From: Parcubacteria group bacterium
GTDB taxonomy: Bacteria > Patescibacteriota > Minisyncoccia > Phycocordibacterales > DATDWN01
Direction: 5' to 3'
Length of the DNA stretch: 64,000 nt
NCBI GenBank assembly: GCA_035438705.1
Contig: DAORIV010000001.1
Location: 43,593 to 107,592 of the forward strand
The notes under the pieces were generated by a model. The model did no database searches, had not been told where the DNA came from, and saw only the letters and a list, made by a program, of their open reading frames with translations. This document shows, one piece after another, positions 10,570 through 53,468 of this stretch. The position numbers and the translations under genes are program-made. The stretch's first letter is position 1. Each line of letters starts with the position of its first letter.

Positions 10570-10572
10570 GGT

Positions 10573-28633: not shown

Positions 28634-29203
28634 ATGAAGAATTCACTAATTTGGGCAGGGGTTATCGTAGTTATACTAGGTCTATTTATTTGGAGGATGG
28701 GTCAGGATACAAATACAAGCTTAGACTCTACCTTGGAAACACAAGAAGTCAGCACAACAACTGAAAAAGTTACTAAAACTCAACCTGTTGCAACAAAACC
28801 TGCGCCAGTAACTGGGATGAAAGTATCTCTAGGAGGAATTTTTGCTGAAAAGGGTAACTATCAATGTGATTATGAGCAAGCTACTCAACAAAATAGAAGT
28901 AAACATGTCATTTATATTTCAAATGGAAAAATGCGAGCAGAGTTTAGGACTTCTGAGGGTCTAAATAGTGATAATACATTAATGGTTTATGATGGTAGAT
29001 ACTTGTATGTTTGGACAGAAGGTAAGTCAACTGGAACTATTTCAGAACCAAAAACTATAAAAGATCTTCCTTCTCTAATACCAGAGGATATAAGTAGTGG
29101 AAGAATACTTGGCTCAGGTATAAATAATGTAAGTTGGAACTGTCACGCTTGGTCACTTGATAAGAGTAAGCTTGTACCGCCATCTTACGTGAGGTTTAAC
29201 TAA
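28634..29203 (+). CDS. hypothetical membrane-anchored/secreted protein (189 aa)
   Basis: N-terminal TM/signal anchor, Thr-rich linker. Confidence 0.5.
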   Translation: MKNSLIWAGVIVVILGLFIWRMGQDTNTSLDSTLETQEVSTTTEKVTKTQPVATKPAPVTGMKVSLGGIFAEKGNYQCDYEQATQQNRSKHVIYISNGKMRAEFRTSEGLNSDNTLMVYDGRYLYVWTEGKSTGTISEPKTIKDLPSLIPEDISSGRILGSGINNVSWNCHAWSLDKSKLVPPSYVRFN

Positions 29204-29245
29204 TAATACCATAAAACCACCTCTACGGTGGTTTTATGGTATTAT
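29203..29245 (+). terminator. terminator with long stem (ATACCATAAAACCACC-TCTA-CGGTGGTTTTATGGTAT)
   Basis: core AAAACCACCTCTACGGTGGTTTTA repeats at 31587. Confidence 0.6.
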
Positions 29246-29274
29246 TAGAATATTAAAATTTAATTAATCAAAAT

Positions 29275-31581
29275 ATGAATTTTAGGATTCTCTTTTTATT
29301 TGCGTTCATACTTTTAACAACACCATTTCATGTTCAAGCTAAAGATTTGTACGTAGACCCAAATGGAAATGATGCTGTTTCTTATGCAAACAACTCAGCA
29401 TCGACTCCTTGGAGAACTATCGGTCGTGCGGCATGGGGAAGTACGAATAGAGAGGCAAGAAATGGTTCTGAGGCCGCTAGAGCAGGAGATATTGTTATAG
29501 TTAATGCTGGCACATATACAGGAGTCGGAACGAACTCTAGAAATGAAATTTTGTATTACCAAGAAAACAATGGTACAGCTGGGAATCCTATTACGTTCAG
29601 AGCAAATGGTACTGTAAATCTAACTCAGACAGGGGCGGGTGCAATGATAGGTTCATACAGAAGAAATTATATTGTATGGGATGGTTTCACAATAAATGAA
29701 GCAACTGCAGCATCTGTGGCTGATACTGGCCCTGTTACAGTGTATGAGTGTACTGGATGTGTATTGCAAAACTTAAATATAAATGGGAACGGAGATGGAA
29801 ACGGCAGAATGGACAACCACAATGGAATTAGAATTGAAGCATCAAATAATATAACTATAAAAAATAATAGAATTCAAAATGTTTACACAGATCACAATGT
29901 TTATAACGGTGCTTGTGTTATGACATACTCCAGTCAGGGTCTGACTATTGAAAACAACCATTTTTCTGAATGTGGTTCAGGTGTGTTTATAAAAGGAGGT
30001 CCGTTCGGATCTCAAATCACAAACACTTCATATATAAGATACAACCTTTTTGAAAATGTGTATGAAAATAGAGGAGGGGATCTTTCTGGCGGTTGTATAG
30101 CACTTCATGCTGGGGCACCATATTCTGCATCAGCACCAATTCTTATATATCAAAACATCATGAAAAATTGTGGTTGGGCAGGTGTGAGAATATGGGCTTT
30201 TGATAGCACTAATCCGCTAAACAATCCGACTAACGCAAAAATATTTAACAATGTAATAGATAATGCTACAAACGGTATTTGGGTTACAGGAGGCCTTTTA
30301 ACAAATGCTGGTCATCAGTTTTGGAATAACATTATTACAAATACTACTGGAGATGCTATAGCATTTGGAACAACCCCATCAGAAAATGTAAAGAGTCGTT
30401 TTGATTCTGAACACAACCTATTCTATAGCAATTCTAGTATTGCTCAAGATGCTCCAGGAACTAGATATACTTTGGCAACATGGAAAGCAACCGGCCAAGA
30501 TTCTGCTTCGCCTGAGTCTGTAAACGCAAATCCACTATTTATAGGTCCATCATCAAATAATTATAGACTTCAGTCTGGTTCACCAGCATCATCTCTGGGT
30601 AGAGCTATATATGGAATTGGTGGTGTAACTGGTGCTGTAATACCTGTTGGAGCATATATAACAGGCAGTGAGCTGATTGGAATATCTAATGGAGGCAATA
30701 TACAAAACTCTAATCCAATTACACCAGTAACACCAGCCCCGACAGCAGATATTAGGATAAATAATTCCTCAACGGGTGTAAGTGTTAATGTGGGAACTTC
30801 AGTCGTTATTTCTTGGACATCAACTAATGCTACTTCTTGTACTGTTTCACCTAGCTCATGGAGTGGAACAGCTGGGACACAAACTGTCACCCCTATTTCA
30901 AGTGCCACTTATACCATTTCTTGTTCTGGTGCGGGTGGTTCGGTAACTGATTCTGTTTCAGTGACCGTAAATCCTGTTGTTGTAGATCCGGTACCAGTTA
31001 CTCCAGTTGCAACATCTACAGAAGAGTGGGTATTTTGTTCGAATGAAAATGGAACATGTACTTTTTCTGGAACTAAGGATGTTAGATATGGAGCACAAAA
31101 TTCATATAATATAAGAACAGTAACTGGTTCAATAGGATGTAACAATGATGTTTTTGGAGACCCTATTTTAAATGTCGTAAAGCAATGTCAATATAAAAAT
31201 ATTGTCACAAATACTACACCCACAACTACAACTCCAACAACTCCGACTGCCACAACAACTACTAGTAATGATAATTTAATTAAGGTTGGAGATAGAATAA
31301 AAACAACAGCTACAATAAATGTAAGATCATCTGCTGGGGGAAGAATTGTGGGTACTCAAAGAACTGGTAGGGTAGGAAGTGTTACCACAGGACCTTCTAC
31401 AGTTAGTAGGAGGGATTGGTTTAGAGTTAATTTTGAATCAGGAGTAGATGGTTGGGTTGCGGTGGATTATATAACTAAAATTTCTACAACCACACTTTCT
31501 CAAGAAGAAATATTAAATCAAATTGCAAATCTGTTCATACTTATTAAACAACTTCAACAACAACTTAATAATCTAAGATAA
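29275..31581 (+). CDS. secreted multidomain protein: signal peptide, right-handed parallel beta-helix (pectate-lyase-like), PKD/Ig-like domain, T/P linker, SH3b-like domain, C-terminal amphipathic helix
   Basis: beta-helix repeats (NNRIQN, NNHFSE, IMKN...), WTSTNATSCTVS..YTISCSGAGGS Ig-like, WFRVNFESGVDGWV SH3b-like. Confidence 0.65.
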   Translation: MNFRILFLFAFILLTTPFHVQAKDLYVDPNGNDAVSYANNSASTPWRTIGRAAWGSTNREARNGSEAARAGDIVIVNAGTYTGVGTNSRNEILYYQENNGTAGNPITFRANGTVNLTQTGAGAMIGSYRRNYIVWDGFTINEATAASVADTGPVTVYECTGCVLQNLNINGNGDGNGRMDNHNGIRIEASNNITIKNNRIQNVYTDHNVYNGACVMTYSSQGLTIENNHFSECGSGVFIKGGPFGSQITNTSYIRYNLFENVYENRGGDLSGGCIALHAGAPYSASAPILIYQNIMKNCGWAGVRIWAFDSTNPLNNPTNAKIFNNVIDNATNGIWVTGGLLTNAGHQFWNNIITNTTGDAIAFGTTPSENVKSRFDSEHNLFYSNSSIAQDAPGTRYTLATWKATGQDSASPESVNANPLFIGPSSNNYRLQSGSPASSLGRAIYGIGGVTGAVIPVGAYITGSELIGISNGGNIQNSNPITPVTPAPTADIRINNSSTGVSVNVGTSVVISWTSTNATSCTVSPSSWSGTAGTQTVTPISSATYTISCSGAGGSVTDSVSVTVNPVVVDPVPVTPVATSTEEWVFCSNENGTCTFSGTKDVRYGAQNSYNIRTVTGSIGCNNDVFGDPILNVVKQCQYKNIVTNTTPTTTTPTTPTATTTTSNDNLIKVGDRIKTTATINVRSSAGGRIVGTQRTGRVGSVTTGPSTVSRRDWFRVNFESGVDGWVAVDYITKISTTTLSQEEILNQIANLFILIKQLQQQLNNLR

Positions 31582-31616
31582 AAAATAAAACCACCTCTAC
31601 GGTGGTTTTATTTTTG
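31581..31616. terminator. bidirectional terminator AAAACCACC-TCTA-CGGTGGTTTTATTTTT
   Basis: identical core to the 29215 terminator; flanked by convergent genes. Confidence 0.6.
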
Positions 31617-32654
31617 GATGTGTTGAGTGATGCTGTAAATTGGTGAGATTATTGATATGGAGACGAACCCGATTATAATACCTACAATTATCATCATGAT
31701 TGGCTCAATTAGACTCGAGATATTTTTGGTGAATTCATCTATTTCCTGTTCATAATTTTTTGAGACGTAAATCAAAGATTCCGAAAGATTCCCGCTTTTT
31801 TCACCAGATGAAATTAATGCTGTCATTTCGTGAGGGAATAAAAAATTATTTTTTTGAGTATAAGAAGATAGTTGTTCGCCTTTTTCTGATATAGAAAGTA
31901 ATTTCTTTAGTTCTTTTTTGTATATGATATTTTGAGTGGTCCTTTCGGTTACAAGTATGCCTTCACTAAGAGACATACCACTCTGGAGTAGAACCCCGAG
32001 AGTCCTTGTTATGTTGCTTAATATGTATTTTTTTATAACATCACCTATAACAGGTGTAGATAGTGTTTTGTAGAAAGTAAAATATCTCACTCTTTTGTTG
32101 TTTTTAAGTATATATAATAATCCCAAGATAATTAATATTGTTAAGAGTAACAATATTAACCAATTATTTAGCACAAAACTACTAGTGTAGATTAGTATTT
32201 TTGTTGATGTCGGTATCTCAATGTTCATAGTTTTAAAAACCGGGGTAATTTTGGGAAATAAGTATACTATTAGAAAAATAGTAATACACAGTGTAGATAA
32301 ACCGATAACTATTGGATAAATAAGAGAGTTTATTAATTTTTTTCTGATCAAGTTTTTCTTTGTGATTTCCTCTGTGAGATATTCAAGATTTTCACTTAAG
32401 GTTCCACTTGATTCTCCATAATCAATAATATTTATACTAAACTCATTAAATACTTTTGGAAACCTAGCAAGACTTTTTGATAATTTTTTACCATTAGATA
32501 TGTCGGTGATTAGATGATTAATAATGGTTGAATGTTTTTTAGTAGACTGTTTTTGTATAGTACTTAAACTATCTATCAAACCCAAACCAGCTTTTGTAAG
32601 AAAAGTGAGTCTTTTGAAAAAAAATATCTGGTCACTATTTTTCATATTATTCAT
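31608..32654 (-). CDS. GspF/PilC-family platform protein, short (ComGB-like)
   Basis: T2SSF-like domains, 3 TM segments, 348 aa. Confidence 0.7.
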   Translation of the reverse strand: MNNMKNSDQIFFFKRLTFLTKAGLGLIDSLSTIQKQSTKKHSTIINHLITDISNGKKLSKSLARFPKVFNEFSINIIDYGESSGTLSENLEYLTEEITKKNLIRKKLINSLIYPIVIGLSTLCITIFLIVYLFPKITPVFKTMNIEIPTSTKILIYTSSFVLNNWLILLLLTILIILGLLYILKNNKRVRYFTFYKTLSTPVIGDVIKKYILSNITRTLGVLLQSGMSLSEGILVTERTTQNIIYKKELKKLLSISEKGEQLSSYTQKNNFLFPHEMTALISSGEKSGNLSESLIYVSKNYEQEIDEFTKNISSLIEPIMMIIVGIIIGFVSISIISPIYSITQHIQK

Positions 32655-33867
32655 TTGTTACTCTGAGTATTTCATCTATGGTTGTGACTCCATTCATAAC
32701 TTTTTCCAGCCCATCCATTAGTAGTGTTTTTGTATTGTTTCCTAAAGCAATTTTTTTCAATTCATTTAAACTTTTTTTATCATGAATTGCTTCTCTAATT
32801 TTATCGTCAATTATTAGTATTTCGTTAATTGAAATTCTTCCAGAGTATCCGCTCATACCACATCTTTTGCAACCCTCACCACGATATAAATTTATTACAT
32901 CTTCTGTCCTGTGGGATTTAATGAATTTTTTGTCTATATCGTTAGGTTTATATGTTGATTTACAGTATGTACATATTTTCCTAACCAATCTTTGTCCAAT
33001 TACAAGACTTAGTGTGGATGAAATTAAATACTCTTCAACACCCATATCAATTAGTCTGGGTATTGTGCCTATGGCATCATTTGTATGAATGGTCGATAAG
33101 AGTAGATGTCCTGTGAGAGCCGTATTTACTGCAATTCCAGCTGTTTCTTTGTCTCTTATTTCTCCAACCATTATAATATTGGGGTCTTGGCGCAAAATAC
33201 TCCTAAGTCCGTTTGCAAAACCAAGTCCATTTTTAGTATTAACTTGTATTTGTTCTACATCATCTATTGCATATTCAATAGGGTCTTCTATGGTCACAAT
33301 TGAAACATCAGGGGAATTAAGTAAATTTATTAAAGAATATAAGGTTGTAGTTTTTCCGGAACCTGTTGGTCCAGTAGCTAGTACCATGCCGTGAGGTTTT
33401 TTAAGGCATCTTATAATTTTTTCTTGATCACTATCACTAAAACCTAATTGTTTTAGCGTCACTTTTTGATTGTCCGTTGATAAAAGTCTCATTACTACAT
33501 TTTCTCCATAGTATGTTGGTACCATAGAAACTCTAATATCAACAAAATTATCTGGCTCAACAATAGAATATCTAAAACGTCCATCTTGTGCAGTTTGATG
33601 TTCATCAGTGCGTAGTTTACAGAGAACTTTAATTCTGGAAATTATTTCTTCATGAGTTTTCTTTGGGAGAAAAAATGGTTTTTGTAAAACCCCATCAATT
33701 CTAAATCTTACTTTTACAGTATCTGAGTTTGGGTCAATGTGGATATCTGAGACCTTATTTTTAATTGCTTTTTCAATTAGGTATTCAATTAGGTTTATGA
33801 TAGAAATATCTAGGTTTTCTTCAATTTCCTTTTCTAGTTGAGCCTGTTTTTCCTCAATGTTGGGCAT
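32647..33867 (-). CDS. GspE/PilB-family secretion ATPase, short form lacking N-terminal domain (ComGA-like)
   Basis: Walker A ATGPTGSGKTTTLYS, Asp box, Walker B, C-terminal CxxC pairs; 406 aa. Confidence 0.8.
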   Translation of the reverse strand: MPNIEEKQAQLEKEIEENLDISIINLIEYLIEKAIKNKVSDIHIDPNSDTVKVRFRIDGVLQKPFFLPKKTHEEIISRIKVLCKLRTDEHQTAQDGRFRYSIVEPDNFVDIRVSMVPTYYGENVVMRLLSTDNQKVTLKQLGFSDSDQEKIIRCLKKPHGMVLATGPTGSGKTTTLYSLINLLNSPDVSIVTIEDPIEYAIDDVEQIQVNTKNGLGFANGLRSILRQDPNIIMVGEIRDKETAGIAVNTALTGHLLLSTIHTNDAIGTIPRLIDMGVEEYLISSTLSLVIGQRLVRKICTYCKSTYKPNDIDKKFIKSHRTEDVINLYRGEGCKRCGMSGYSGRISINEILIIDDKIREAIHDKKSLNELKKIALGNNTKTLLMDGLEKVMNGVTTIDEILRVTNE

Positions 33868-33942
33868 GTTGGGTAGGGTTATTCACCGAACTCTACTCCC
33901 ATTCAAAGGTAAACACAAGTATTTGATGATACAATTGTCTTT

Positions 33943-36900
33943 ATGAAAAAAGTATATTTTATTGTATTTATATTGGGAGCATTATTGTTTAATAATTCAG
34001 TTTATTCTGCAACTGCGACATTTCAACACGGGGTCAATGGTTATACGGGTGGAGAGGACTTAGAAATAAGTAGTGATAACCCAAATACCAATTATATTTC
34101 AGGAGGAAGTAATTATTCTGATAGAAGTGGACTGCGTTTCTGTGGTTCGAAGTGTAATAAAATACTCTTACGTTTTAATTCTCTTGGAATAACGGGCAAC
34201 ATAACAAATGTTAGGCTCGAACTAAAAGAAAGTGGAAGACAAGGTGGGGCAAGTAATATATATGCATATAAAATATCTAAAAATGACTGGGTAAATAGTC
34301 AAACTACTTGGAATACATATAAGACTGGAAGCAATTGGGCATCTGCAGGAGGTGATATAGGTTCAGTATTATCTACAATATCTGCACCTGGGACAAACAA
34401 TTGGGCTAGTTTTGATCTCGGTGCAAACTGGACTATTACAGAATTACAACAAAATGGTATATTAATTGATACTGATATACCCGGATGGAATTATGTCTGG
34501 TTTTATACGAATGAGGCAAGTAATGTAACTGATAGACCAAAACTTATTGTTACCTATGATGGAACAACTCCCACAACCCCAACAACTCCAGCTCCAACTG
34601 TTACAATTTCTGCTTCACCTACATCTATAACTTCAGGTGGAAGTTCAACACTAACTTGGTCTTCAACAAATGCGACATCTTGTACTGCAAGTGGTTCATG
34701 GACTGGAAGTAGAGGAACTTCAGGAACACAATCAACTGGAACACTTACAACAAACTCAACTTTTACACTTTCATGTAGTGGAGCTGGGGGCACAACGAAT
34801 CAGTCTGTCACAGTAATTATCAATTCAACAACACCAGTAACACCAACATCTGGAGGATTAGAAATAGATCTTTCTTATGTAAATCAAAGTTCTCCAGAGT
34901 TTATAAGATTTAAGTCTGTAGTAGATGCTGCGTTAGCTGGAAATCCTGATTATGGTTTTTCAGGCGAACATGCTGCTCTTATGTATAAAATTACTGGTGA
35001 TGTAAGGTATGCTGATTATGCCATCGGTTTTATTGAGAATTGCCAAAATTCAAGATACGCAGGTGCTAATTGTGGAGTACAAGGTGCTGAAGCTTTAATT
35101 TCTAATGGAAACAGACCTCCAGTTGCTGGGGATTCGTATCTTGAAGTTGGTGATATTATAGGTTCTCTTGCACTTGTATATGATTGGGCTGGGTCTAGAA
35201 TGACACAATCTCAGAAAACAAGATGGGCTAATTATGCAAACCAGACAATTTATAATGTTTGGAATCCGAATCAAGCTTCATGGGGAGGAGTATCTCATCC
35301 CTGGACAGGATGGTCTATAAATAATCCTGGAAATAACTATTATTACAGTTTCGTTCAAGCGACAATGTACTGGGCTCTTGCAACAAATGATACAACACTA
35401 CTTTCTTTTGTTAGAAATCAAAAATTACAACCTTTGGTAAATTATTTCAATCAAATCCCAGGTGGAGGAAGTCTTGAAGGAACTGGTTACGGAACTGCTC
35501 ATATGAGAATGTTTCATCTGTATCAGGTCTGGAAAGATTCAACAGGAGAGGATCTTGCAAATGCGAATAGCCACTTAACAGATAGTATAAGACTTTGGTT
35601 ACATCAAACAACACCAAATAGAGCTTATTATGCACCAATAGGAGATTTATCTAGAAGTTCTTTCCCAGATCTATTTGATTATCATAGAAGACTTGTGCTT
35701 GAAGCTCGTAATCTAACAAATAATAACTCTGCAAAAGATACTGCTTCATGGTGGTTAAATAATATTTCTGTGACACAAATGTCTAGACGTATTGATTCTC
35801 AATATGATTTATTACCGAAAGGAATAAATACTAGTGTTGCGCCAAATGAACCTCTGTCATATAGAGCAAGCGGGATAGGTAGAGTATTTGCTAGAACAGG
35901 TTGGGATACAAATGCATTATGGATGTCATTTGCTGCAGGAAAATATAATGAAAGTCACGCACATCAAGATCAAGGATCGTTTACTTTAGCAAACAATGCA
36001 TGGCTTGCTGTTACAAATAATATTTATACGAATAGTGGAATTGAGCAGTCAACCGATTACCACAATATTATCAGATTTGTTCAAAATGGATCAGTAGTCC
36101 CACAAAGAGAGGGTACTGAATCTGTGATGACAGTAAATCAACTTGGAACAAATGGTGAAGTAGATGTAACTGGAAATATCACTCCAGCTTATGGAGGAAG
36201 TTCAGCTGTCCAAAGTTGGGTTAGAAATATTAGATTTTCTGGAAGGAAACTCACAGTTAATGATGGCTTTTCTGTGGCAGCAGGGACTCAAGCAATATTT
36301 CAAATTCATGTACCTGTTCAACCTGTCGTGAGTGGAAACACAATAACAGCAGGTAATTTAAGAGTAAGAGTCCTTGTTCCAGCATCTCCTACGATAACAG
36401 TAGTAAATCAAGGTAGGTATAGAATTGATATAAGTGGTGGAACAAATCAATATGTTGTCGAACTTTCGGATCAAGCAATTACTGGTACGACGATAATACC
36501 AGCACCCCCAGTTTCAGGTAGTCCAACAACTCCCACAACCCCAACAACTCCAGCTCCAACTGTTACAATTTCTGCTTCACCTACATCTATAACTTCAGGT
36601 GGAAGTTCAACACTAACTTGGTCTTCAACAAATGCGACATCTTGTACTGCAAGTGGTTCATGGACTGGAAGTAGAGGAACTTCAGGAACATTGTCTGTAA
36701 CCCCCACAACAACATCAACATATACATTGTCTTGTACAGGCATAGGCGGAAGTATAAATCAATCTACTACAGTTACAGTGAATACTGTGATTCCGACAAC
36801 ACCAGCATCAACACTATTTACATCAGGTCAAAGAGTTCAAACAACAGCCAACCTAAATGTTAGAGCAACTGCTTCATCAAACGGAACACTACTAGGCACG

Positions 36901-38799
36901 CAAAGCACTAGTGCATTAGGAACAATCACAGGAACATCAGTATATGCAAACAGTATAAACTGGTGGAATGTTAACTATGATACTGGAGTAGATGGGTGGT
37001 CATCAGAGCAATTCTTGCAAAATTATGTTGCGCCTACTACTCCAACAACACCTACTGCTCCGACACAACCGACAACACCAAGTGGCACAGGTAGTACTTT
37101 CTACCCTCCAATAAATACTAGTGACACATCAGATGCTCCTCTAATTAACTTTGCTGAAACATGGGCAAGAAACTGGAACTTTGGTGGACACAGTGTAACT
37201 ACTACAAACTGGAGTGGTTGGTGGGATTACAGTGATACTTCTTACGAGCCTTGGTTGTTCGATAGAGCATCAGTTGGTTACTATTTATACAAGAGAACAA
37301 ATGATTCTAAATGGTTAGATAAGTTTATGTCTGACTTTGCTTGGTACAGAGCAAGAATAGATGCAAATGGATTCTTTACACCTACATCCTATGACGATAA
37401 CAAATATGCTTACGTTAGACCATTTCTTTTATATGAAAGACAAACAGGTGACAATCAATATAGAAGTCAAGCACTAAATATTTATAATATGTGGCTTAGA
37501 GAATTTTCTAACACATATAGTACTTCTATTGGACTTTGGACTGAAAGAGAAATTGGTTTAGCTCTTGAAGTTGCTGTAGATTATTACGATCTTACAGGAA
37601 GTCAGGCAGCGCTTACTCGTGCGAATGCACTTGTTACTCAGTGGTCAGTTATGTCGGCAAATAATGGAGGTGCACCACTTCACACTGTAACTCAACATGA
37701 AGGTGGTGGGGGATCTCAAATGATTACTAGTCCGTGGATGAGTGCACTTTATTTTCAAGCTGCATATAAACTTTATGCATTAACCGGTAATACAGAAGTG
37801 TTACAACAAATAAGTAGATATGCTGATTGGATGGAGCAATATGGTTACTTCTCTGGAAATACAGTGGGGGTTTCAAGTGTTCCTACTGCAGCATATTATT
37901 TAGCTGGCCCAAACGGTCCTTACACTGCCGAGACACCTAGTACAGGAGATTTTTCTCACTGTTTAGATATCTCAAATATGATTAAGTTCGCAGTGGTTGC
38001 AAAACAAGCTCTTGGAGAGTCAACTACAGCAGTTGCAAACAGACAAGCACAATTAAAAACATGCGCAGCATATTATTTTGCTGACGCAACAAGAACTACA
38101 ACAAGTCTTCCAAGATACAGAGTAAATCCGGCCAGATCATTTAACTGGTGGGTGCGTTCAACAGTTGAGTACAGAACATCTGGAACAAACTCAACTCCAA
38201 TACCTACTCCAACAGTAACACCAACAATACCACCCACCACAACAACTCCAACTACACCTACATCAGGAGGAGCAGGTGGTGGAAGTTCAGCACCAAGTAC
38301 ACCATCTACACCAGTAACACCTACAACACCGAGTGCAGGGTCAGGAGCTGGGGTAGGTGGAGGAGGCGGAGTGCAAACTCCTAGCTTACCAAGTACAGGT
38401 GGCGGAGGAACATCTTCCACACCTAAACCAGTTATCACTCGCAATTTGTCACCAGGAACAAAGGGAACTGATGTAACACAATTACAAAACTTCCTAATCT
38501 CTACAGGATATCTAGCATCAGGACTAAACACAGGATACTATGGTAATGCTACCAAAGAAGCTGTACAGAAGTATCAATGTGCCACACTTAAACTATGTTC
38601 AGGAACACAAACAACTAATGGTTACGGAGTAGTAGGAACAAAGACAAGAACAGCACTAACTACAACAAACACTCCTGTGCAAACCATAACCTCTACACTT
38701 ACTGCAGAACAAAGAGTTGCAATACAGAAACAGATTAGTGATTTACTTGTAGTTGTCGCACAACTTATGGAGCAACTAAAAGCAATGCAGGGGAACTAG
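33943..38799 (+). CDS. giant (1618 aa) secreted multidomain protein: signal peptide, two near-identical PKD/Ig-like modules, heparinase II/III-like polysaccharide-lyase region, SH3b-like domain, second alpha/alpha-toroid-like region, T/P/G-rich linkers, C-terminal peptidoglycan-binding domain and amphipathic helix
   Basis: ESHAHQDQGSFTL (heparinase II/III-like H-x-H-x-D-x-GSF), PG_binding_1-like LSPGTKGTDVTQLQNFLISTGYL...TKEAVQKYQ, repeated Ig-like WSSTNATSCTASGSW modules. Confidence 0.7.
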   Translation: MKKVYFIVFILGALLFNNSVYSATATFQHGVNGYTGGEDLEISSDNPNTNYISGGSNYSDRSGLRFCGSKCNKILLRFNSLGITGNITNVRLELKESGRQGGASNIYAYKISKNDWVNSQTTWNTYKTGSNWASAGGDIGSVLSTISAPGTNNWASFDLGANWTITELQQNGILIDTDIPGWNYVWFYTNEASNVTDRPKLIVTYDGTTPTTPTTPAPTVTISASPTSITSGGSSTLTWSSTNATSCTASGSWTGSRGTSGTQSTGTLTTNSTFTLSCSGAGGTTNQSVTVIINSTTPVTPTSGGLEIDLSYVNQSSPEFIRFKSVVDAALAGNPDYGFSGEHAALMYKITGDVRYADYAIGFIENCQNSRYAGANCGVQGAEALISNGNRPPVAGDSYLEVGDIIGSLALVYDWAGSRMTQSQKTRWANYANQTIYNVWNPNQASWGGVSHPWTGWSINNPGNNYYYSFVQATMYWALATNDTTLLSFVRNQKLQPLVNYFNQIPGGGSLEGTGYGTAHMRMFHLYQVWKDSTGEDLANANSHLTDSIRLWLHQTTPNRAYYAPIGDLSRSSFPDLFDYHRRLVLEARNLTNNNSAKDTASWWLNNISVTQMSRRIDSQYDLLPKGINTSVAPNEPLSYRASGIGRVFARTGWDTNALWMSFAAGKYNESHAHQDQGSFTLANNAWLAVTNNIYTNSGIEQSTDYHNIIRFVQNGSVVPQREGTESVMTVNQLGTNGEVDVTGNITPAYGGSSAVQSWVRNIRFSGRKLTVNDGFSVAAGTQAIFQIHVPVQPVVSGNTITAGNLRVRVLVPASPTITVVNQGRYRIDISGGTNQYVVELSDQAITGTTIIPAPPVSGSPTTPTTPTTPAPTVTISASPTSITSGGSSTLTWSSTNATSCTASGSWTGSRGTSGTLSVTPTTTSTYTLSCTGIGGSINQSTTVTVNTVIPTTPASTLFTSGQRVQTTANLNVRATASSNGTLLGTQSTSALGTITGTSVYANSINWWNVNYDTGVDGWSSEQFLQNYVAPTTPTTPTAPTQPTTPSGTGSTFYPPINTSDTSDAPLINFAETWARNWNFGGHSVTTTNWSGWWDYSDTSYEPWLFDRASVGYYLYKRTNDSKWLDKFMSDFAWYRARIDANGFFTPTSYDDNKYAYVRPFLLYERQTGDNQYRSQALNIYNMWLREFSNTYSTSIGLWTEREIGLALEVAVDYYDLTGSQAALTRANALVTQWSVMSANNGGAPLHTVTQHEGGGGSQMITSPWMSALYFQAAYKLYALTGNTEVLQQISRYADWMEQYGYFSGNTVGVSSVPTAAYYLAGPNGPYTAETPSTGDFSHCLDISNMIKFAVVAKQALGESTTAVANRQAQLKTCAAYYFADATRTTTSLPRYRVNPARSFNWWVRSTVEYRTSGTNSTPIPTPTVTPTIPPTTTTPTTPTSGGAGGGSSAPSTPSTPVTPTTPSAGSGAGVGGGGGVQTPSLPSTGGGGTSSTPKPVITRNLSPGTKGTDVTQLQNFLISTGYLASGLNTGYYGNATKEAVQKYQCATLKLCSGTQTTNGYGVVGTKTRTALTTTNTPVQTITSTLTAEQRVAIQKQISDLLVVVAQLMEQLKAMQGN
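34565..34730 (+). repeat. intragenic direct repeat copy 1 (~166 bp, PKD/Ig-like module)
   Basis: apparently identical to 36526..36691 (by reading, and by identical antisense ORF translations). Confidence 0.85.
36526..36691 (+). repeat. intragenic direct repeat copy 2 (~166 bp)
   Basis: apparently identical to 34565..34730. Confidence 0.85.
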
Positions 38800-38805
38800 A
38801 GAAAT

Positions 38806-38834
38806 AAAAAAACCGCCACATAGCGGTTTTTTTA
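38806..38834. terminator. bidirectional terminator AAACCGCCACATAGCGGTTT with A/T runs
   Basis: between the giant gene (+) and the malic enzyme gene (-). Confidence 0.55.
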
Positions 38835-39989
38835 TTTGCTAACCTTTTTTACTGCATTTGCTACAGCTTTAGCAACTCTTTTATCAAATGGACTTGGAAT
38901 AATGTAACTAGGGGATAGCTCCTTGTAAGTGACTAGTTTAGCTATAGCTAAAGCTGATGCTAACTTCATTTCGGTGGTTATTTGTTTTGCACCACTATCT
39001 AATGCGCCCCGGAAAATCCCAGGAAATACTAAAACATTATTTATTTGGTTTGGGTAATCACTTCTGCCTGTTCCAAAAACTTTTATTTTGGTTTTCTTTG
39101 CATTCTCCATACTTATCTCTGGATTAGGATTTGCCAAAGCAAGAACTATTGGGTCTTTGGCCATTTTTTCTATCCATTCAGGTTTTAAAATATCTGCAAC
39201 TGAAACACCAATAAAAACATCAGCATCTTCCAGCACTTGTTCCAGGTTTCCTTCCATTGTCTTACTATTTGTTTTATCAGCAATAGCTTTTTTGTATTTG
39301 TTTAAGTCAGTTCTTTTTCTATGTAAGGCACTTTTACTATCTAACATGATAATATTCTTTGCATTCACGCCATAATCAATAAGTAGATTACATATTGCTA
39401 TTGCTGCAGAACCAGCACCGTTAATTATAGTTTTAATACTGTTCTTATCTTTTTTAACGACTTTTAATGCGTTTATTAATGAAGCAAGAACCACAATTGC
39501 TGTGCCATGCTGATCGTCGTGCATTACAGGTATGTTCAATTCTTTTTTTAGTCGTTCTTCTATCTCAAAACATTTTGGCGCTGAAATATCCTCTAAATTT
39601 ATTCCACCAAATCCAACTGAGATTATTTTGATTGTTCTAATAATTTCTTCTGTATCTTGTGTGTCTAAACAAATAGGGTAGGCATCTATTCCAGCAAACT
39701 CTTTAAATAATATTGCCTTACCTTCCATAACAGGCAGAGCACCGTAAGGTCCAATATTTCCAAGTCCCAGAACTGATGACCCATCGGATATTACAGCCAC
39801 AGAGTTTGATTTAACTGTGAGTTTATTAGCTAAATCTTTATTTTTTTTTAAAACTCTTGATACTTCTGCTATCCCTGGTGTGTATGCAACAGATAGCTCG
39901 TATTTATTAGTTACTTTTAATTTAGAATAAGTACCAATTTTACCTTTAATTTTTTTATGCAATTCAAGTGATTTTTTAAAATAATTCAT
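38832..39989 (-). CDS. NAD(P)-dependent malic enzyme (short bacterial form)
   Basis: YTPGIAEV, ISDGSSVLGLGNIGPYGALPVMEGK malic-enzyme motifs; start at MNYFKK (ATG 39987-39989); upstream in-frame extension to 40055 runs into repeat/hairpin sequence. Confidence 0.8.
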   Translation of the reverse strand: MNYFKKSLELHKKIKGKIGTYSKLKVTNKYELSVAYTPGIAEVSRVLKKNKDLANKLTVKSNSVAVISDGSSVLGLGNIGPYGALPVMEGKAILFKEFAGIDAYPICLDTQDTEEIIRTIKIISVGFGGINLEDISAPKCFEIEERLKKELNIPVMHDDQHGTAIVVLASLINALKVVKKDKNSIKTIINGAGSAAIAICNLLIDYGVNAKNIIMLDSKSALHRKRTDLNKYKKAIADKTNSKTMEGNLEQVLEDADVFIGVSVADILKPEWIEKMAKDPIVLALANPNPEISMENAKKTKIKVFGTGRSDYPNQINNVLVFPGIFRGALDSGAKQITTEMKLASALAIAKLVTYKELSPSYIIPSPFDKRVAKAVANAVKKVSK

Positions 39990-39992
39990 ACT

Positions 39993-40003
39993 GTGTTGGC
40001 GGG
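39993..40003. repeat. 11-bp direct repeat TGTGTTGGCGG (copy of the tRNA-Ser 3-prime end/flank; second copy 43133..43143)
   Basis: region reads GGCCCGCCAACACA on the minus strand, versus GGCTCCGCCAACACA at the intact tRNA-Ser 3-prime end. Confidence 0.6.
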
Positions 40004-40074
40004 CCACTCGGGTTAAGTACCGTCCGAGTGAGACGTTGTAAGGATATTTTAACACATTTATTGACGGTCAATTG

Positions 40075-44058: not shown

Positions 44059-44703
44059 TTAATGTGCAATTGTAAAGCCAATTACATCTTTTGCCCCCTT
44101 ACCAATCAGTATTTTTCTAGCTTCAGTTAGTGTGGTGCCAGTTGTAACAACATCATCAATCAGGAATATATATTTACCAAAAACCCTCTCATCAGCATCA
44201 AAACAATCAGATAAGTTTTTTACTCGTTCTTCTTTTGAGTTGCTATGACTTTGTTTTGGAGTCTCTTTCACTTTGCCAAGCCATTGTGGTGCATAAATAA
44301 GTAGTCTCTGGGTATCACAATCTATTATTGATTTGGCAATTAATTCACTTTGGTTATATCCACGTTGGACTCTTGATTCTGTGGTTATGGGAATCGGTAT
44401 TAACAAAAATTCAGCATTATTGTTGAATAATGATATATCAGAAATTACAGAAATAATTTCTTCGAATATAATTTTTCCAATAGTTTCTAATGGTGAGACA
44501 TTTTCTTTGTATTTCAATTCCCAAATTATTGCTTTTACTCTAGTGTCTTTATATTGAAATAAGGGGGTTATCCATTCTATATCGGTTACTTTTTGAGATT
44601 TGGGTAATGAATATATAGTTTTTTCGTCGAGCTTCTTCACTATTTCATAATTAGATCTTGGTGGAATGATAAAATCCAAGATACTTTTTCCGATCTCAAT
44701 CAT
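44059..44703 (-). CDS. comFC: ComF-family phosphoribosyltransferase-domain protein
   Basis: C-terminal PRTase motif FLIDDVVTTGTT; likely start at MIEIGKS. Confidence 0.7.
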   Translation of the reverse strand: MIEIGKSILDFIIPPRSNYEIVKKLDEKTIYSLPKSQKVTDIEWITPLFQYKDTRVKAIIWELKYKENVSPLETIGKIIFEEIISVISDISLFNNNAEFLLIPIPITTESRVQRGYNQSELIAKSIIDCDTQRLLIYAPQWLGKVKETPKQSHSNSKEERVKNLSDCFDADERVFGKYIFLIDDVVTTGTTLTEARKILIGKGAKDVIGFTIAH

Positions 44704-44779
44704 TCTATTTACAACAGTATTTACCATTATGGTATTTATTATACACCTAATATTGTGATACAATATTTTAAATATATTT

Positions 44780-45907
44780 ATGGCAAATTTCCTATCTCAA
44801 ATAACAGATTTATTTGCAAAGAAAAGTGGAAGTGTCTTAGGCATCGACATAGGTTCATCTTCTATAAAAGTAGTGCAAATAAGTAGAAAAAATGGTCATG
44901 CTATTTTAGAAACATACGGGGAACTTGCTCTCGGACCTTACACTGGGAAGGGGGTTGGGGAGTCTGTAGCTCTACCTCAAGAAAAAGTAATTGAAGCAGT
45001 TAAGGATATGCTTAAAGAAAAAGAGGTAAATATTACGACTATGTCTTGTGGAGTTGCCATACCTTTTGCATCAAGTTTGATGGCGGTAATTGAAATGCCA
45101 GATGTATCGAGGAAAGAATTGGAGCAAATGATTCCTATTGAAGCTAGAAAGTATGTTCCGGTGCCAATATCTGAGGTTACATTAGATTGGTATGTGATAC
45201 CAAAAGATAAAAATGCTGAACCTCTTGTTCCTGCGGACCCAAATGCTCCTAAACCAAAATCAACCATTGAAGTATTAATTGTTGCATTGCACAACGACAC
45301 TATAAATAAATACAAAAATATTGTAACAAATACTGGTTTAGATGTTGGATTTTTTGAGATTGAAATATTCAGTACTATGCGTTCTGTTTTGGATGATGAA
45401 ACTAAACCGGTTTTAGTTGTTGATATGGGAGCATCTAGCACAAAGTTATATATGGTTGAAAGGGGGATACTTAGAGCATCACATATGGTTGAAAGAGGTT
45501 CATATGACATAACAGATGAGTTGTCAAAATCACTTGGTATTTCTCTTACTGATGCAGAATATTTGAAAAGAGAAAAGGGTTTGATAGGAGAAACAAATGG
45601 AATTGCTTTAAAAAATGTTGCTTCCTTTACATTAAACTATATTTTTACAGAAGCAGATCGCTTTATACTTACTTATCAAAAAAAATACAATAAGGATGTC
45701 AGTAAGGTGATTCTTGTGGGGGGTGGTAGTGCATTAAAAGGTGTGGTTCCGTTTGCAAAAGAAATACTTGAAACAGAAGTTTTGGCAGGAGATCCTTTTT
45801 CAAAAGTGGTAGCACCTGCATTTCTAGAACAAGTTCTTAAAGAGACAGGTCCTGAGTTCGCTGTGGCAGTTGGAGTGGCTCTTCGAAAGTTGCAAGAAGT
45901 ACGTTAG
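44780..45907 (+). CDS. pilM: type IV pilus assembly protein PilM (actin-like ATPase fold)
   Basis: GIDIGSSSIKVVQ N-terminus, 375 aa, first gene of pilMNO set. Confidence 0.8.
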   Translation: MANFLSQITDLFAKKSGSVLGIDIGSSSIKVVQISRKNGHAILETYGELALGPYTGKGVGESVALPQEKVIEAVKDMLKEKEVNITTMSCGVAIPFASSLMAVIEMPDVSRKELEQMIPIEARKYVPVPISEVTLDWYVIPKDKNAEPLVPADPNAPKPKSTIEVLIVALHNDTINKYKNIVTNTGLDVGFFEIEIFSTMRSVLDDETKPVLVVDMGASSTKLYMVERGILRASHMVERGSYDITDELSKSLGISLTDAEYLKREKGLIGETNGIALKNVASFTLNYIFTEADRFILTYQKKYNKDVSKVILVGGGSALKGVVPFAKEILETEVLAGDPFSKVVAPAFLEQVLKETGPEFAVAVGVALRKLQEVR

Positions 45908-45962
45908 TTTGACTATTGCAAAATCAAGTATAAAATTTAATAAGATTTTTGGGAGGACTATT

Positions 45963-46145
45963 ATGCCTGAAGTCCAGTCATGTGATTGTAGGCAGGTAGG
46001 AAACGACGAAATGTTTGACCTCGGTCAGTCCTCAAGGGAACTGAGGAGTGTAAAATCCACAAGAAGGGGAATTCTGGTTTGTTTTTTTGTAGTATTTCTT
46101 ATTGCTTTTGGGATTATAACAAAAAGAATTCCCGTTCCTTTCTAA
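45963..46145 (+). CDS. hypothetical ~60-aa tail-anchored protein in GC-richer insert between pilM and pilN (could instead be an sRNA)
   Basis: ATG at 45963 within ORF 45870; C-terminal TM; followed by a strong terminator. Confidence 0.25.
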   Translation: MPEVQSCDCRQVGNDEMFDLGQSSRELRSVKSTRRGILVCFFVVFLIAFGIITKRIPVPF

Positions 46146-46148
46146 GTT

Positions 46149-46199
46149 AGCTCTGCACAAAATATTCGTAAGTATTTTGTGCAGAGCTTTCTGTTTTTA
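46149..46199 (+). terminator. strong terminator (17-bp stem AGCTCTGCACAAAATAT/ATATTTTGTGCAGAGCT + T-run)
   Basis: long perfect inverted repeat then TTTCTGTTTTT. Confidence 0.65.
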
Positions 46200-46253
46200 T
46201 ACACAGTTAATATAGTTTTTTGGGATAGCATATACTATAATTACGTATATATT

Positions 46254-46862
46254 ATGGAACCAAAGTTTCAAACTTCTTTTATTCCGAAAAAAATTGCAGA
46301 AGATGATTCTAGAAATAGAGTTAGCATCTCTGCTGAAACAAATATTTTTACACTTGCCGCCACAGTTGTATTTGTGGTCATTTCACTTCTCTATGGGGGA
46401 TTATTCTTTTATAAAGGGGTAATCATAAAACAAGTAGAAAAAGCTAGACAAGATTTGATAAGTGCTAGTGATGCCATACAGCCGGATAAAATTCAAGAAA
46501 TAATTGATAACAATACTAGAATAAATAATTCCTTGGAAATTTTAGATAAACACTTAGCAACATCTAGATTGATGATGTTTTTAAGTGATTCCACGATAAA
46601 AAAATTAAAATTTAATGAGTTTCTATATCAAAACAAAGATGGTGTTGCGTCTGTAATTATAGACAGTGAGGTTCAGACATACAATGCTTTTGCATATCAA
46701 CAAGAAGTTTTGGCTAAAAGTGAATATGTTAAAAATCCTACATTTACTGACATATCACTCTCTGATGATGGAAATGTTAAGTTTAAGTTTTCTGGAAGAA
46801 TAGAGCAAAGTCTTGTTTCTTACAAAAAAGCTCTTGAGTCAACAATAACAATAAACCAATAA
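46254..46862 (+). CDS. pilN: PilN-like pilus assembly protein
   Basis: N-terminal TM then coiled/periplasmic domain; ATG at 46254. Confidence 0.6.
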   Translation: MEPKFQTSFIPKKIAEDDSRNRVSISAETNIFTLAATVVFVVISLLYGGLFFYKGVIIKQVEKARQDLISASDAIQPDKIQEIIDNNTRINNSLEILDKHLATSRLMMFLSDSTIKKLKFNEFLYQNKDGVASVIIDSEVQTYNAFAYQQEVLAKSEYVKNPTFTDISLSDDGNVKFKFSGRIEQSLVSYKKALESTITINQ

Positions 46863-46863
46863 A

Positions 46864-47418
46864 ATGAAATCTTTATTATCGATACTAGTTATAGCAGTTT
46901 CAGTTGGAGTATATTTTGTATATATCAAACCACTTACTTTGGATATTAGAGTACAGATGGCAAAGAAACAGGAAATTGAAAAAGTGTTGAATAGAGTTAA
47001 AGAGATTAAAGAGAAAAGAGATTCTATATTGGATGAGTACAATGCAATTAGCGTTGAAGATATAGAAAAACTTAATAAAATCATTCCTGAAACCATTAAT
47101 TCAGTTGAAATATTTAATGATCTGGCTTCTGCAGGTGCCGGATACGGTTTAACTGTGCAGGAGTATAAGGCCGATGAAGATAATTCAAACCAAAACTCTG
47201 TTTCAGAAACAGTATCTGATCTTCCGTATAAAAAAACTAAACTCACGATTAAATTTACAGGACCATATTCTCAGTTTGTTGGATTTTTAGAAAAAATTGA
47301 GTCAAGTTTAAGAATAATAGATATAAATTCATTGAGTATAAAACAGGGGTCATCTTCTGATAGGGGTCCTGTTACCCTTGATTATGTGTTGGAAGCAAAC
47401 GTTTATTCTTTAAGATAA
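46864..47418 (+). CDS. pilO: PilO-like pilus assembly protein
   Basis: N-terminal TM, coiled-coil, 184 aa, position after pilN. Confidence 0.6.
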   Translation: MKSLLSILVIAVSVGVYFVYIKPLTLDIRVQMAKKQEIEKVLNRVKEIKEKRDSILDEYNAISVEDIEKLNKIIPETINSVEIFNDLASAGAGYGLTVQEYKADEDNSNQNSVSETVSDLPYKKTKLTIKFTGPYSQFVGFLEKIESSLRIIDINSLSIKQGSSSDRGPVTLDYVLEANVYSLR

Positions 47419-47422
47419 AAAT

Positions 47423-47746
47423 ATGAATGTAACACCCGCAATACAAAAATTAATTGTTACCATAGTGATATTAGTAGGTTTGGGTTATTTACTTTTCAAT
47501 ACTTTGACAAGTGATATTCCAGTGGATGACACTATGGTTGCAACTAAAGCTGAAGGGGAGGAGATACTTATATTGGCAGATAAACTCGATGCAGTTAACA
47601 TTAATGACTCTATTTTTTCATCACCACTTTTTACAAGCTTGGTTGATATTTCTGTTCCAGTTGTAGAAGAACCAAAAGGTAGACCAAATCCATTTTCACA
47701 AATAGGTAATGATACTGTTTCTACAGGACCAGGTGGAGTACGTTAA
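47423..47746 (+). CDS. hypothetical pilus assembly protein (PilP-position)
   Basis: N-terminal TM, 107 aa, within pil operon. Confidence 0.4.
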   Translation: MNVTPAIQKLIVTIVILVGLGYLLFNTLTSDIPVDDTMVATKAEGEEILILADKLDAVNINDSIFSSPLFTSLVDISVPVVEEPKGRPNPFSQIGNDTVSTGPGGVR

Positions 47747-47760
47747 TAACACAGCAAAAT

Positions 47761-49485: not shown

Positions 49486-49508
49486 TTAAATTACTTTATA
49501 CTCAAGTT

Positions 49509-49901
49509 ATGGAAGCTGATAAAAAAAATTTAAAAATACTACTTGTTGATGATGATCGTTTTCTGTTGGATATGTATATTTTGAAATTTAAGAAATCAGG
49601 TCTAGATATTGATACTGCATCAAATGGTGCTGCAGCATTAGAAAAAATAAAATCTGGGGTAGAGTATGACATAGTGCTTTCTGACATAATTATGCCAAGC
49701 ATGGATGGACTAGAGCTTTTAAAGACCATGAGAACGGAAAAAATACTTCCAAATGCAACTGTCATAATGCTAACAAATCAAGCAGATGATTATGATAAAG
49801 CAAAGGCTTTGGGAGTTGATGGTTATATTATAAAAGCCACAACAATCCCATCTGAAGTTGTAGAAAAAGTATTAACCATTTATAAAAATAAGAAAAAATA
49901 A
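49509..49901 (+). CDS. stand-alone response-regulator receiver (CheY-like) protein
   Basis: LLVDDD...D(S)D..MP..DG REC motifs, 130 aa. Confidence 0.8.
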   Translation: MEADKKNLKILLVDDDRFLLDMYILKFKKSGLDIDTASNGAAALEKIKSGVEYDIVLSDIIMPSMDGLELLKTMRTEKILPNATVIMLTNQADDYDKAKALGVDGYIIKATTIPSEVVEKVLTIYKNKKK

Positions 49902-49903
49902 AA

Positions 49904-50971
49904 ATGTCAGCTGATTATAAAAAAGATTTTGAAAACTTAGTTTCAATAATGGTGCAAGAAGAGGCATCAGATTTACACTTGTCTGAAGGAAGAAAACCTA
50001 CAGTAAGAGCATCGGGGATATTGATACAACTTGAGAATTATCCAGTTATGGCTCATGCAGATATGAAAGGTATACTTGACGCGTTGCTTGATGAAGTTAA
50101 GAAAGAAGTTTTTGAACAAAAAAAAGAAGTTGATTTTTCTTACTTAACAACTGAAGGTTCACGTTTGAGAGGAAACGCTTTTCACAGAATGGATAAAATA
50201 AGTATTGCATTTAGACTTATCCCAAAACAAATAAAAACTTTAGCTGAATTAAAAATTCCTACTATTCTAGAGACATTTACAAGAAAAAAACAAGGTTTCT
50301 TTTTGGTGGTAGGTCCAACAGGTCAGGGTAAAAGTACAACTCTTGCTGCTCTAATTGAAATGATTAACCAAGAAAGACTTGCTCATATTGTTACCATTGA
50401 AGATCCTGTAGAGTATGTTTTTGAATCAAAAAAATCAATTATTGACCAAAGAGAAGTTCTAGAAGACACACCAGATTTTCATACGGCTTTACAAGGCGCC
50501 TTTAGACAGGATATAGATGTGCTTATGATTGGAGAAATGCGAACACCAGAAGATATAGCTACTGCTGTTACTGCTGCAGAAACAGGACATTTGGTTTTTT
50601 CTACGCTTCACACTAACAATGCTGCTCAAACTATAGATCGTATTATTGATTCATTTGACACCATGGCTCAGAAACAAATACGTACACAATTAGCTTCCTC
50701 TTTGCTTGCAGTATTTTCTCAAAGACTCATACCTACAGTTTCAAAAGGATTAGTTCCATCTGTAGAATTACTTATAAACAACAGTGCAGTCGCAAATCTT
50801 ATTCGTGAGGGTAGGACTCATGAAATCAATTCTGTTATTGAGACAAGTTCAGAGCAGGGAATGATAGATTCAAATAGGTATTTAAGTGATTTGGTTCGGG
50901 CGGGAGAGATATCTATCGAAAATGCTTTCTTGTATTCTCAAAATTCAAAAGGTCTAGAAAGAATGTTGTAG
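49904..50971 (+). CDS. pilT: twitching motility / pilus retraction ATPase PilT
   Basis: Walker A VVGPTGQGKSTTL, 355 aa PilT-size. Confidence 0.85.
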   Translation: MSADYKKDFENLVSIMVQEEASDLHLSEGRKPTVRASGILIQLENYPVMAHADMKGILDALLDEVKKEVFEQKKEVDFSYLTTEGSRLRGNAFHRMDKISIAFRLIPKQIKTLAELKIPTILETFTRKKQGFFLVVGPTGQGKSTTLAALIEMINQERLAHIVTIEDPVEYVFESKKSIIDQREVLEDTPDFHTALQGAFRQDIDVLMIGEMRTPEDIATAVTAAETGHLVFSTLHTNNAAQTIDRIIDSFDTMAQKQIRTQLASSLLAVFSQRLIPTVSKGLVPSVELLINNSAVANLIREGRTHEINSVIETSSEQGMIDSNRYLSDLVRAGEISIENAFLYSQNSKGLERML

Positions 50972-50988
50972 AATAAGAATACTTAAAT

Positions 50989-53446: not shown

Positions 53447-53468
53447 TATTTATCTTATATAAGTTATC

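Follow-up and report, generated by a model that had tools for sequence, protein, structure and literature searches.

A Short PilB/PilC-Type Motor Pair in a Parcubacterium Is a Candidate Assembly Motor for a Second Type IV Filament

Type IV pili (T4P) are believed to play a central part when the ultra-small Patescibacteria locate and hold on to their hosts and when they acquire DNA. In a 64,000-nucleotide stretch of a Parcubacteria group genome (contig DAORIV010000001.1; hereafter the window), two overlapping genes encode a short assembly ATPase of the PilB/GspE family and a short inner-membrane platform protein of the PilC/GspF family, together called the pair. Comparison with models, relatives and known systems indicates that the pair is very probably a type IV filament motor of PilB descent, as distinct from ComGA. 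With moderate confidence, we favor the explanation that it assembles a second pilus, probably an adhesive one, from pilins encoded elsewhere and with the shared prepilin peptidase PilD. The pair belongs to a Patescibacteria-specific clade of streamlined PilB/PilC motors that is large and so far unnamed, and the results suggest that a second, pared-down filament machine is widespread among Parcubacteria. Besides the pair, the window (about 35% G+C) contains genes for ribosomal proteins, translation factors and SecY, as well as a full T4P locus.

The short ATPase (32647-33867, minus strand, 406 aa) matches the Pfam family PF00437, T2SSE, over residues 20-402 (E 4e-125; 417.6 bits against a cutoff of 24.9), and the short platform (31608-32654, minus strand, 348 aa) contains two repeats of PF00482, T2SSF (E 4e-47; 159.8 bits, above the gathering score). 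The ATPase aligns with positions 92-486 only of the GspE model and positions 164-563 only of the PilB model, and its best match in the PDB is the N1-deleted EpsE crystal construct 1p9r, of which it matches residues 16-409. Because these alignments all begin past N1, the short ATPase consists of the N2 domain and the catalytic C-terminal domain, the N1/MshEN domain of roughly 150 aa being missing. The platform is about 55 N-terminal residues shorter than GspF/PilC and aligns with positions 59-401 of the GspF model. The nucleotide motifs of the ATPase are intact (Walker A, G166PTGSGKT; Asp box, E194DPIE; Walker B, I231IMVGEIRD; His box, T252GHL), and so is the zinc site, C299xxC302...C333xxC336, which is kept in 39 of 39 relatives of the short clade described below and is absent in PilT; the presence of this tetracysteine motif places the protein in the GspE/PilB assembly subgroup, as opposed to PilT. 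As read from the sequence, the stop of the ATPase lies over the start of the platform in an 8-bp overlap, ATGAATAA (32647-32654), through which translation of the platform is coupled to that of the ATPase. The open reading frames (ORFs), the Pfam matches and the overlap agree with the preliminary description of this DNA, which had reported a 406-aa ATPase without an N-terminal domain and a 348-aa platform overlapping by 8 bp.

That description had also assigned the pair to ComGA/ComGB and proposed that it drives a DNA-uptake pseudopilus, in which a short ComG-type competence pilus would capture DNA for ComEC and ComFC. We consider this explanation unlikely, although the minimal, N1-less architecture of the pair is indeed that of ComGA/ComGB. 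On the ComGA model NF041000 the short ATPase scored 263.5 bits (cutoff 300; fifth in rank), exactly as did its paralogue, the main-locus PilB of the window, whereas a Bacillus-type ComGA scored 348 bits and ranked ComGA first, above GspE, an order that is reversed in the short ATPase. (The 348 bits were obtained with a B. subtilis ComGA sequence, to which the closest of the database ComGA proteins, P0121, is 99% identical.) The short platform scored 158.5 bits on the ComGB model NF041012 (cutoff 240), and its best model was GspF, with 250 bits against a cutoff of 424. The short ATPase reached 513 bits on the GspE model TIGR02533 (cutoff 630), the GspL-binding N1E domain being absent, and 467 bits on TIGR02538, the model of PilB of type IVa pili (T4aP; cutoff about 675). 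Over the shared core, its identity was 36.7% to ComGA, 44% to GspE, 43% to proteobacterial PilB and 47% to Firmicutes PilB, and 48% to the long Patescibacterial PilBs, the highest of the groups compared. In addition, the zinc subdomain has the full CxxC...CxxC in the short ATPase and is collapsed in ComGA. The main-locus PilB carries MshEN (PF05157, E 5e-14), unlike the short ATPase, and keeps two of the four zinc-site cysteines, of which the short ATPase keeps all four. The ComGA/ComGB identity therefore failed on model scores, core identity and zinc subdomain structure, and it failed again on placement in the tree.

A neighbor-joining tree was built from 102 ATPases (404 columns, 200 bootstraps, PilT as outgroup). 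It sampled 87 loci, six database ComGA proteins, E. coli GspE and HofB, EpsE, and the PilB proteins of Myxococcus and Geobacter; the relatives comprised seven contigs obtained by exact protein look-up (L001-L007) and 80 loci taken from one genome per species. The short ATPase fell inside a clade of 38 sequences, nearly all of them short (support 0.965; 40 sequences with two outliers, support 0.83), and this short clade was nested in Patescibacterial clades of 46 (support 0.93) and 76 members (0.82). The sequences joining at these two nodes are long-form ATPases; the eight of their N-termini that were read all differ from the short form, and six of the eight look MshEN-like. ComGA, GspE, HofB, the Myxococcus and Geobacter PilBs, Firmicutes PilB and the main-locus PilB of the window all lay outside the 76-member clade, while the window pair clustered with L001-L004 at a bootstrap value of 1.0. 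The phylogeny thus placed the ATPase in a Patescibacteria-specific, PilB-derived lineage, apart from ComGA, GspE and classical PilB. We define the short-motor clade as a monophyletic group with an ATPase of about 405-435 aa without MshEN, a platform of about 350-380 aa directly downstream, and an operon free of PilM, PilT and PilD; the window pair falls within this definition. The short ATPase has more than 8000 relatives in the database; the best 120 are mostly about 400-430 aa long, and the organisms named among them belong to the Parcubacteria group (Nomurabacteria, Zambryskibacteria, Minisyncoccia).

To compare operons, ORFs were called in the relatives' loci and compared with the window proteins; the census took loci with at least 6 kb downstream and counted an ATPase of <480 aa as short. 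Among the 23 loci of the short clade, the ATPase was short in 21, PilM was present in one (L007) and at least two downstream pilins in 16, with PilT and PilD in none. The single PilM, that of L007, belongs to an adjacent main locus. The immediate long sister group (5 loci) had no short ATPase, PilM in three and at least two downstream pilins in four, and the remaining long Patescibacterial clade (25 loci) had no short ATPase, PilM in 20 and at least two downstream pilins in 11; PilT and PilD were again found in neither group. The other loci, with main-type or non-Patescibacterial PilB (10 loci), had one short ATPase, PilM in two, at least two downstream pilins in five, PilT in nine and PilD in eight. 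The platform of the short clade has a median length of 365 aa. The N-terminal domain of such ATPases contacts a PilM/GspL-type partner in type II secretion systems (T2SS) and T4P, and, as the comparison of the short and long clades shows, loss of the domain across relatives coincides with the absence of PilM. PilM was the only alignment protein screened in the relatives' operons, and PilN was confirmed by Pfam in one long-clade locus. Neither the secretin GspD nor GspC, GspL or GspM was found in the relatives' operons examined, and clustering of 102 upstream ORFs yielded small lineage-restricted families only and no conserved extra component.

Two further observations concern these relatives. 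The short clade has two long members, L024 (~9530-11260) and L032 (~9464-11170); in both, a response-regulator receiver domain is fused to the N-terminus of the ATPase in place of MshEN, and operons sister to these carry the receiver as a separate gene just upstream. We also considered whether the long sister clade corresponds to the second T4P locus of TM7x by synteny with RecA; this was rejected, since the downstream gene encodes a methyltransferase and not RecA.

A typical operon of the short clade has seven genes, encoding the ATPase, the platform and five pilin-like proteins. The first cassette gene encodes a pilin of about 150 aa whose best match, below threshold, is ComGD/GspH, the match to ComGD being full-length. 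The second encodes a protein of about 470-550 aa in which a PilV-like pilin N-terminus is fused to a beta-propeller of the LVIVD/'choice-of-anchor B' type. The third gene specifies a pilin of about 165 aa with a weak best match to GspJ, the fourth a small pilin-like protein (about 130 aa) that matched no family, and the fifth the major pilin of about 160 aa. No cassette protein reached a Com-, Gsp- or Pil-specific cutoff; the generic prepilin domain alone did. With seven genes that mirror comGA-GG, a first pilin closest to ComGD, and no PilM, PilT or PilD, the operon of the relatives is what a ComG-type engine would lead one to expect, whereas its large beta-propeller pilin points to adhesion. 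As judged from sequence comparison, the system works in its architecture like the ComG machine of a monoderm but lies outside the ComG family. What stood of the proposed pseudopilus engine was therefore a pilus or pseudopilus motor of ComG-like architecture that is separate from the main T4P, and what did not was membership in ComGA/ComGB.

The complete T4P locus with its own PilB, PilT and PilC that had been reported apart from the pair was found at 44780-56983. It encodes PilM (starting at 44780), PilO, a PilB of 574 aa with MshEN (47761-49485, plus strand), a stand-alone response-regulator receiver (49509-49901, plus strand), PilT, PilC (402 aa), three tandem major-pilin paralogues of 167, 145 and 136 aa (52336-53987, plus strand), PilD (53992-54837, plus strand; Pfam A24_N_bact and Peptidase_A24), and four minor pilins, the last ending at 56983. 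The receiver gene lies between those of PilB and PilT. The three major pilins, which are candidate substrates of the short motor, have the class III signal-peptide motif G-F-T-[LI]-I-E and the TIGR02532 prepilin domain above its cutoff. Among the window proteins scanned, PilD was the only A24 peptidase, and none of the 23 short-clade operons has a PilD of its own; we infer that PilD is the shared processing enzyme for the pilins of the short motor.

ComEC and ComFC, which the preliminary description had linked to the pair, were both present by domain matches, as an ORF with the ComEC Competence domain at 81-860 and as ComFC at 44059-44763, and Patescibacteria have been thought to scavenge DNA (PMC6744442). 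Their presence in the window fits a competence engine. However, ComFC lies 16 bp from PilM of the main locus, an adjacency repeated in L001 and L007, and because it adjoins the PilM of a PilT-containing locus, gene order suggests that competence goes with the main pilus and not with the pair. Furthermore, second-pilus mutants of TM7x retain wild-type competence (PMC11623550). On these grounds the proposed role as DNA-uptake engine was not borne out. As a separate observation, ComEC is apparently split (81-2395): the Competence ORF ends at 860, a metallo-beta-lactamase ORF, the usual C-terminal domain of ComEC, occupies 1448-2395, and an antisense Fe/Mn superoxide dismutase gene lies between the two parts (861-1508).

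The pilin cassette of the relatives is not beside the pair in the window, in L001-L004 or in L007, and L008 retains one pilin. A class III signal-peptide scan of the window detected pilins at 52.4-56.5 kb only; hence the ComGC-like pilins for which the preliminary description had suggested looking were not found beside the pair, and the major and four minor pilins that follow the platform in a ComG-type operon are absent. A tblastn search with the cassette proteins of L005 and L006 found no beta-propeller pilin in the window. One could read the pair as a decaying, functionless remnant of a lost second pilus, given that the cassette has gone from beside it in this lineage and that L008 has a single pilin only. 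Against the same-species contig L001, however, dN/dS was 0.135 for the ATPase and 0.067 for the platform, comparable to the 0.137 of IF3, and both motor genes are under purifying selection. The reading frames, motifs and translational coupling are intact, and the cassette-less pair persists in L001-L004 and L007, from 98% down to 62% identity. We rejected decay, an extremely improbable explanation, on the dN/dS of 0.07-0.14 and the intact motifs. Since the cassette is gone but the pair is maintained, the motor uses pilins encoded elsewhere or has another role.

The pair diverges faster than its surroundings. Compared with L003, the ATPase is 64% and the platform 55% identical, whereas the flanking housekeeping proteins are 80-97% and SecY 94% identical (28634-40055), and within the species the dS of the platform is 0.29 versus 0.035 for IF3. 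Recombination, or diversifying pressure in an island of surface structures, may account for this. The conserved tail-to-tail neighbor of the platform encodes a 189-aa protein (28634-29203, plus strand) with an N-terminal membrane anchor and no family match; it shows 76-97% identity in L001-L004 with a dN/dS of 0.09, is absent from cassette-carrying relatives, and has no G-1/E+5 pilin motif.

Where, then, would the pilins come from? One answer is that the pair is an alternative motor for the main T4P, which assembles one of the major pilins, or works under another regulatory regime, together with the main minor pilins, PilD and perhaps PilT. The lack of a cassette beside the pair, the three major-pilin paralogues and four minor pilins in the main locus, and the distance of only about 1.5 kb between pair and main locus in L007 are consistent with this, as are the loss of two of the four zinc cysteines in the main PilB and of none in the short ATPase; the authors of the TM7x study likewise suggested that pilins of one system might be assembled by the machinery of the other (PMC11623550). 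But when the three main-locus pilins were compared with the relatives' 161 pilin-like ORFs, BLAST scores were 40-50 bits for all three, so that no orthology signal links any of them to the cassette pilins, and the three look like recent tandem duplicates of one another. The short ATPase also lacks the domain expected to contact PilM, and a pilin cassette may lie beyond the window. We regard the alternative motor as rather improbable.

Overall, these results lead us to prefer, as somewhat better than an even prospect, a second pilus assembled by the pair. In this model the pair would supply the core motor of a second type IV filament system, the assembly ATPase as a hexamer and the platform as a polytopic membrane protein. 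The N1-less ATPase would dock straight onto the platform, and pilins processed by PilD would be lifted from the membrane and polymerized into a filament, with neither a dedicated alignment complex nor a dedicated retraction ATPase. In this genome the pilins would come from outside the window or be borrowed from the main locus (52.3-57 kb). The most likely use of the filament would be to attach the cell to a host or surface, given that one pilin of the ancestral cassette is of a tip type and bears a propeller, and that the T4P-2 of Saccharibacteria, the nearest analogue studied so far, mediates host binding; by this analogy an adhesive role is the most likely one for the short system.

Several points weigh against this second-pilus explanation. 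The adhesive role is drawn from the relatives' cassette and from analogy, not from features of the window, and within 18 kb of the pair the class III signal-peptide scan, run in six frames, found no pilin motif in the window. The ComG-like architecture, together with ComEC and ComFC in the window, leaves some room for DNA uptake. The T4P-2 of TM7x keeps PilM2, PilN2 and PilO2, while the short-clade operons carry no PilM. Lastly, the tree was made by neighbor joining alone, and its deep nodes beyond the Patescibacterial clade have support below 0.1.

Two giant genes neighbor the pair in the window. The first, g1618 (33943-38799, plus strand), encodes a Sec-exported multidomain surface protein of 1618 aa and is divergent from the ATPase across a 75-bp gap. 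The second, g768 (29275-31581, plus strand), encodes a Sec-exported surface protein of 768 aa and lies tail-to-tail with the platform, whose stop is at 31608. The giants had been described as flanking the pair divergently and as polysaccharide-lyase-like. The divergent arrangement is correct for g1618 and the ATPase, whereas g768 and the platform are convergent. As for the lyase likeness, g1618 has weak heparinase matches (E about 1e-4 to 1e-5), and g768 has a faint match to a NosD-like beta-helix alone (E 3e-4), without a match in Pfam or a sequence match in the PDB. The other modules of g1618 are Ig-like repeats, an SH3-like domain and PG_binding_1 (E 1e-7), and g768 has Ig-like and SH3-like C-terminal modules.

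It had further been suggested that the pair secretes or displays both giants as a minimal T2SS-like device. The highest-scoring models are GspE and GspF, g1618 shares its 75-bp intergenic region with the ATPase, and over its first 848 aa g1618 shares 76% identity with the product of a gene that, in the more distant relatives L003 and L004, lies upstream of the ATPase in divergent orientation; in L001, L008 and L009, different genes for giant surface proteins are found no more than about 1.3 kb from the pair. However, in the same-species contigs L001 and L002 the malic enzyme gene, the ATPase, the platform and the 189-aa gene are consecutive (gaps of 53 bp and 31 bp) with no giants adjacent, and there the pair is kept under purifying selection. 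The giants near the pair differ in family among relatives, L002 has none across 7.6 kb, and large genes upstream of short-clade operons showed no significant enrichment (9/33 versus a 16% baseline, p = 0.07). Each giant begins with a common Sec-type leader. Neither a secretin nor GspC, GspL or GspM turned up in the scanned window proteins, and the pair falls short of the GspE and GspF cutoffs, the GspL-binding N1E domain being absent. Patescibacteria have neither PilQ nor an outer membrane (PMC6744442), so a T2SS would find no second membrane to cross. These data make secretion of the giants by the pair very unlikely, and the idea was not upheld. We give just as little credence to a variant in which the cassette-less motor was captured, in this genus, by a strain-variable island of giant Sec-exported, glycan-active enzymes and would drive their release through the cell wall or display on it as a secretin-less monoderm T2SS analogue, the conserved pairing of g1618 and the ATPase in the window, L003 and L004 then being functional and not just positional.

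With regard to conservation of the neighborhood, the pair is kept, the giants are not beside it in L001 and L002, and a g1618 homologue is present in L003 and L004. The two findings that the preliminary description had named as telling against its proposal were largely obtained, in that the ATPase is not ComGA and the giants are variable, with the reservation that the g1618 homologue does stand beside the ATPase in L003 and L004. In L002, 16 bp take the place of window positions 33921-38844, which contain g1618; as the homologue occupies the same position in L003 and L004, g1618 probably has a long history at this site, and the L001 and L002 strains would have lost it by deletion. By contrast, g768 was seen in the window only and is absent from L001-L004. 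A 25-nt G+C-rich palindromic hairpin, AAAACCACCGTAGAGGTGGTTTTAT, occurs in exactly two exact copies in the window, with zero expected by chance, and these bracket g768: one (31585-31609, minus strand) overlaps the platform stop codon, and the other (29211-29235, minus strand) lies just past the stop of the 189-aa gene. L001 and L002 have a single copy between platform and 189-aa gene and no g768, which suggests that g768 was gained or lost through recombination at the hairpin. The hairpin is terminator-like by inspection, yet it was not flagged in a terminator scan; promoter and terminator scan counts were no higher than in shuffled sequence. The region looks to us like an island of strain-variable surface-protein genes that happens to house the pair, and not like a secretion unit, and we count neither giant as part of the machine.

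Some additional features were recorded. The giants g1618, g768, L001 2865-8684 and L009 286-2577 are module-sharing mosaics: an SH3-like C-terminal module is common to all four, a 41-aa Ig-like segment of g1618 (at aa 221) recurs unchanged within the protein (at aa 875), and g768 and g1618 both finish in a similar C-terminal amphipathic helix. Elsewhere in the window, a 474-aa protein (60784-62208, plus strand), encoded downstream of an amidase-family gene, has SH3, GW and SlpA-like repeats and is probably a further surface protein that binds the cell wall. A highly charged ORF of 1016 aa (7219-10269, plus strand), with an internal hydrophobic stretch and no Pfam match, lies between fusA (4951-7140) and tuf (10759-11955), an unusual insertion into the str operon.

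To our knowledge, experimental work on Patescibacteria pili has so far been confined to Saccharibacteria; if our explanation is true, the pair and its relatives would be a concrete candidate for host-attachment machinery in Parcubacteria, and they would provide a natural case in which the N-terminal domain of an assembly ATPase and its PilM partner were lost together. For annotation, the labels GspE, T2SS and ComGA are best avoided for such proteins.

Compared with known systems, the pair resembles T2SS GspE/GspF (Vibrio EpsE, E. coli GspE) in its best-scoring hidden Markov models and in the N2 and C-terminal part of EpsE seen in 1p9r, but it has no N1E, lies outside GspE in the tree, and was accompanied by no GspL, GspM, GspC or GspD among the window proteins scanned and the relatives' operons. 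With the PilB/PilC of T4aP (Myxococcus, Geobacter, Thermus PilF and the main locus) it shares the catalytic core, the zinc site and 43-48% identity, and the lineage enclosing the short clade has PilB-PilC-pilin-PilM operons with MshEN-bearing ATPases; it differs in that the short ATPase is without MshEN/N1 and the relatives' operons are without PilM and PilT. The comG system of Firmicutes is similar in its N1-less ATPase, short platform and lack of PilM/N/O and PilT, as well as in the seven-gene ATPase-platform-five-pilin operon (of the relatives here), the prepilin peptidase encoded elsewhere and the monoderm envelope. In contrast to ComGA, however, the short ATPase is about 50 aa longer, has a complete tetracysteine zinc subdomain and falls outside the ComGA clade, and in contrast to comG the relatives' cassette has a propeller-bearing pilin of roughly 500 aa and the window has no adjacent pilins.

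In Southlakia, the T4P genes are essential and comEC is not. The T4P-2 of TM7x (Nanosynbacter lyticus, Saccharibacteria) comprises PilB2/PilC2 and a separate five-pilin locus with the beta-propeller pilin PilX2; in experiments it forms thin pili and mediates host binding, and mutants that lack it show no change in competence or twitching (PMC11623550). The likeness drawn here follows the published description of that system (PMC11623550), and the propeller is RCC1-like in TM7x and of the LVIVD type in the relatives of the pair. In both cases, a second ATPase/platform set, which has no retraction ATPase of its own, stands beside a PilT-containing main T4P; one minor pilin among the five (here those of the relatives' cassette) bears a propeller, and motor and pilins can be encoded at separate sites.

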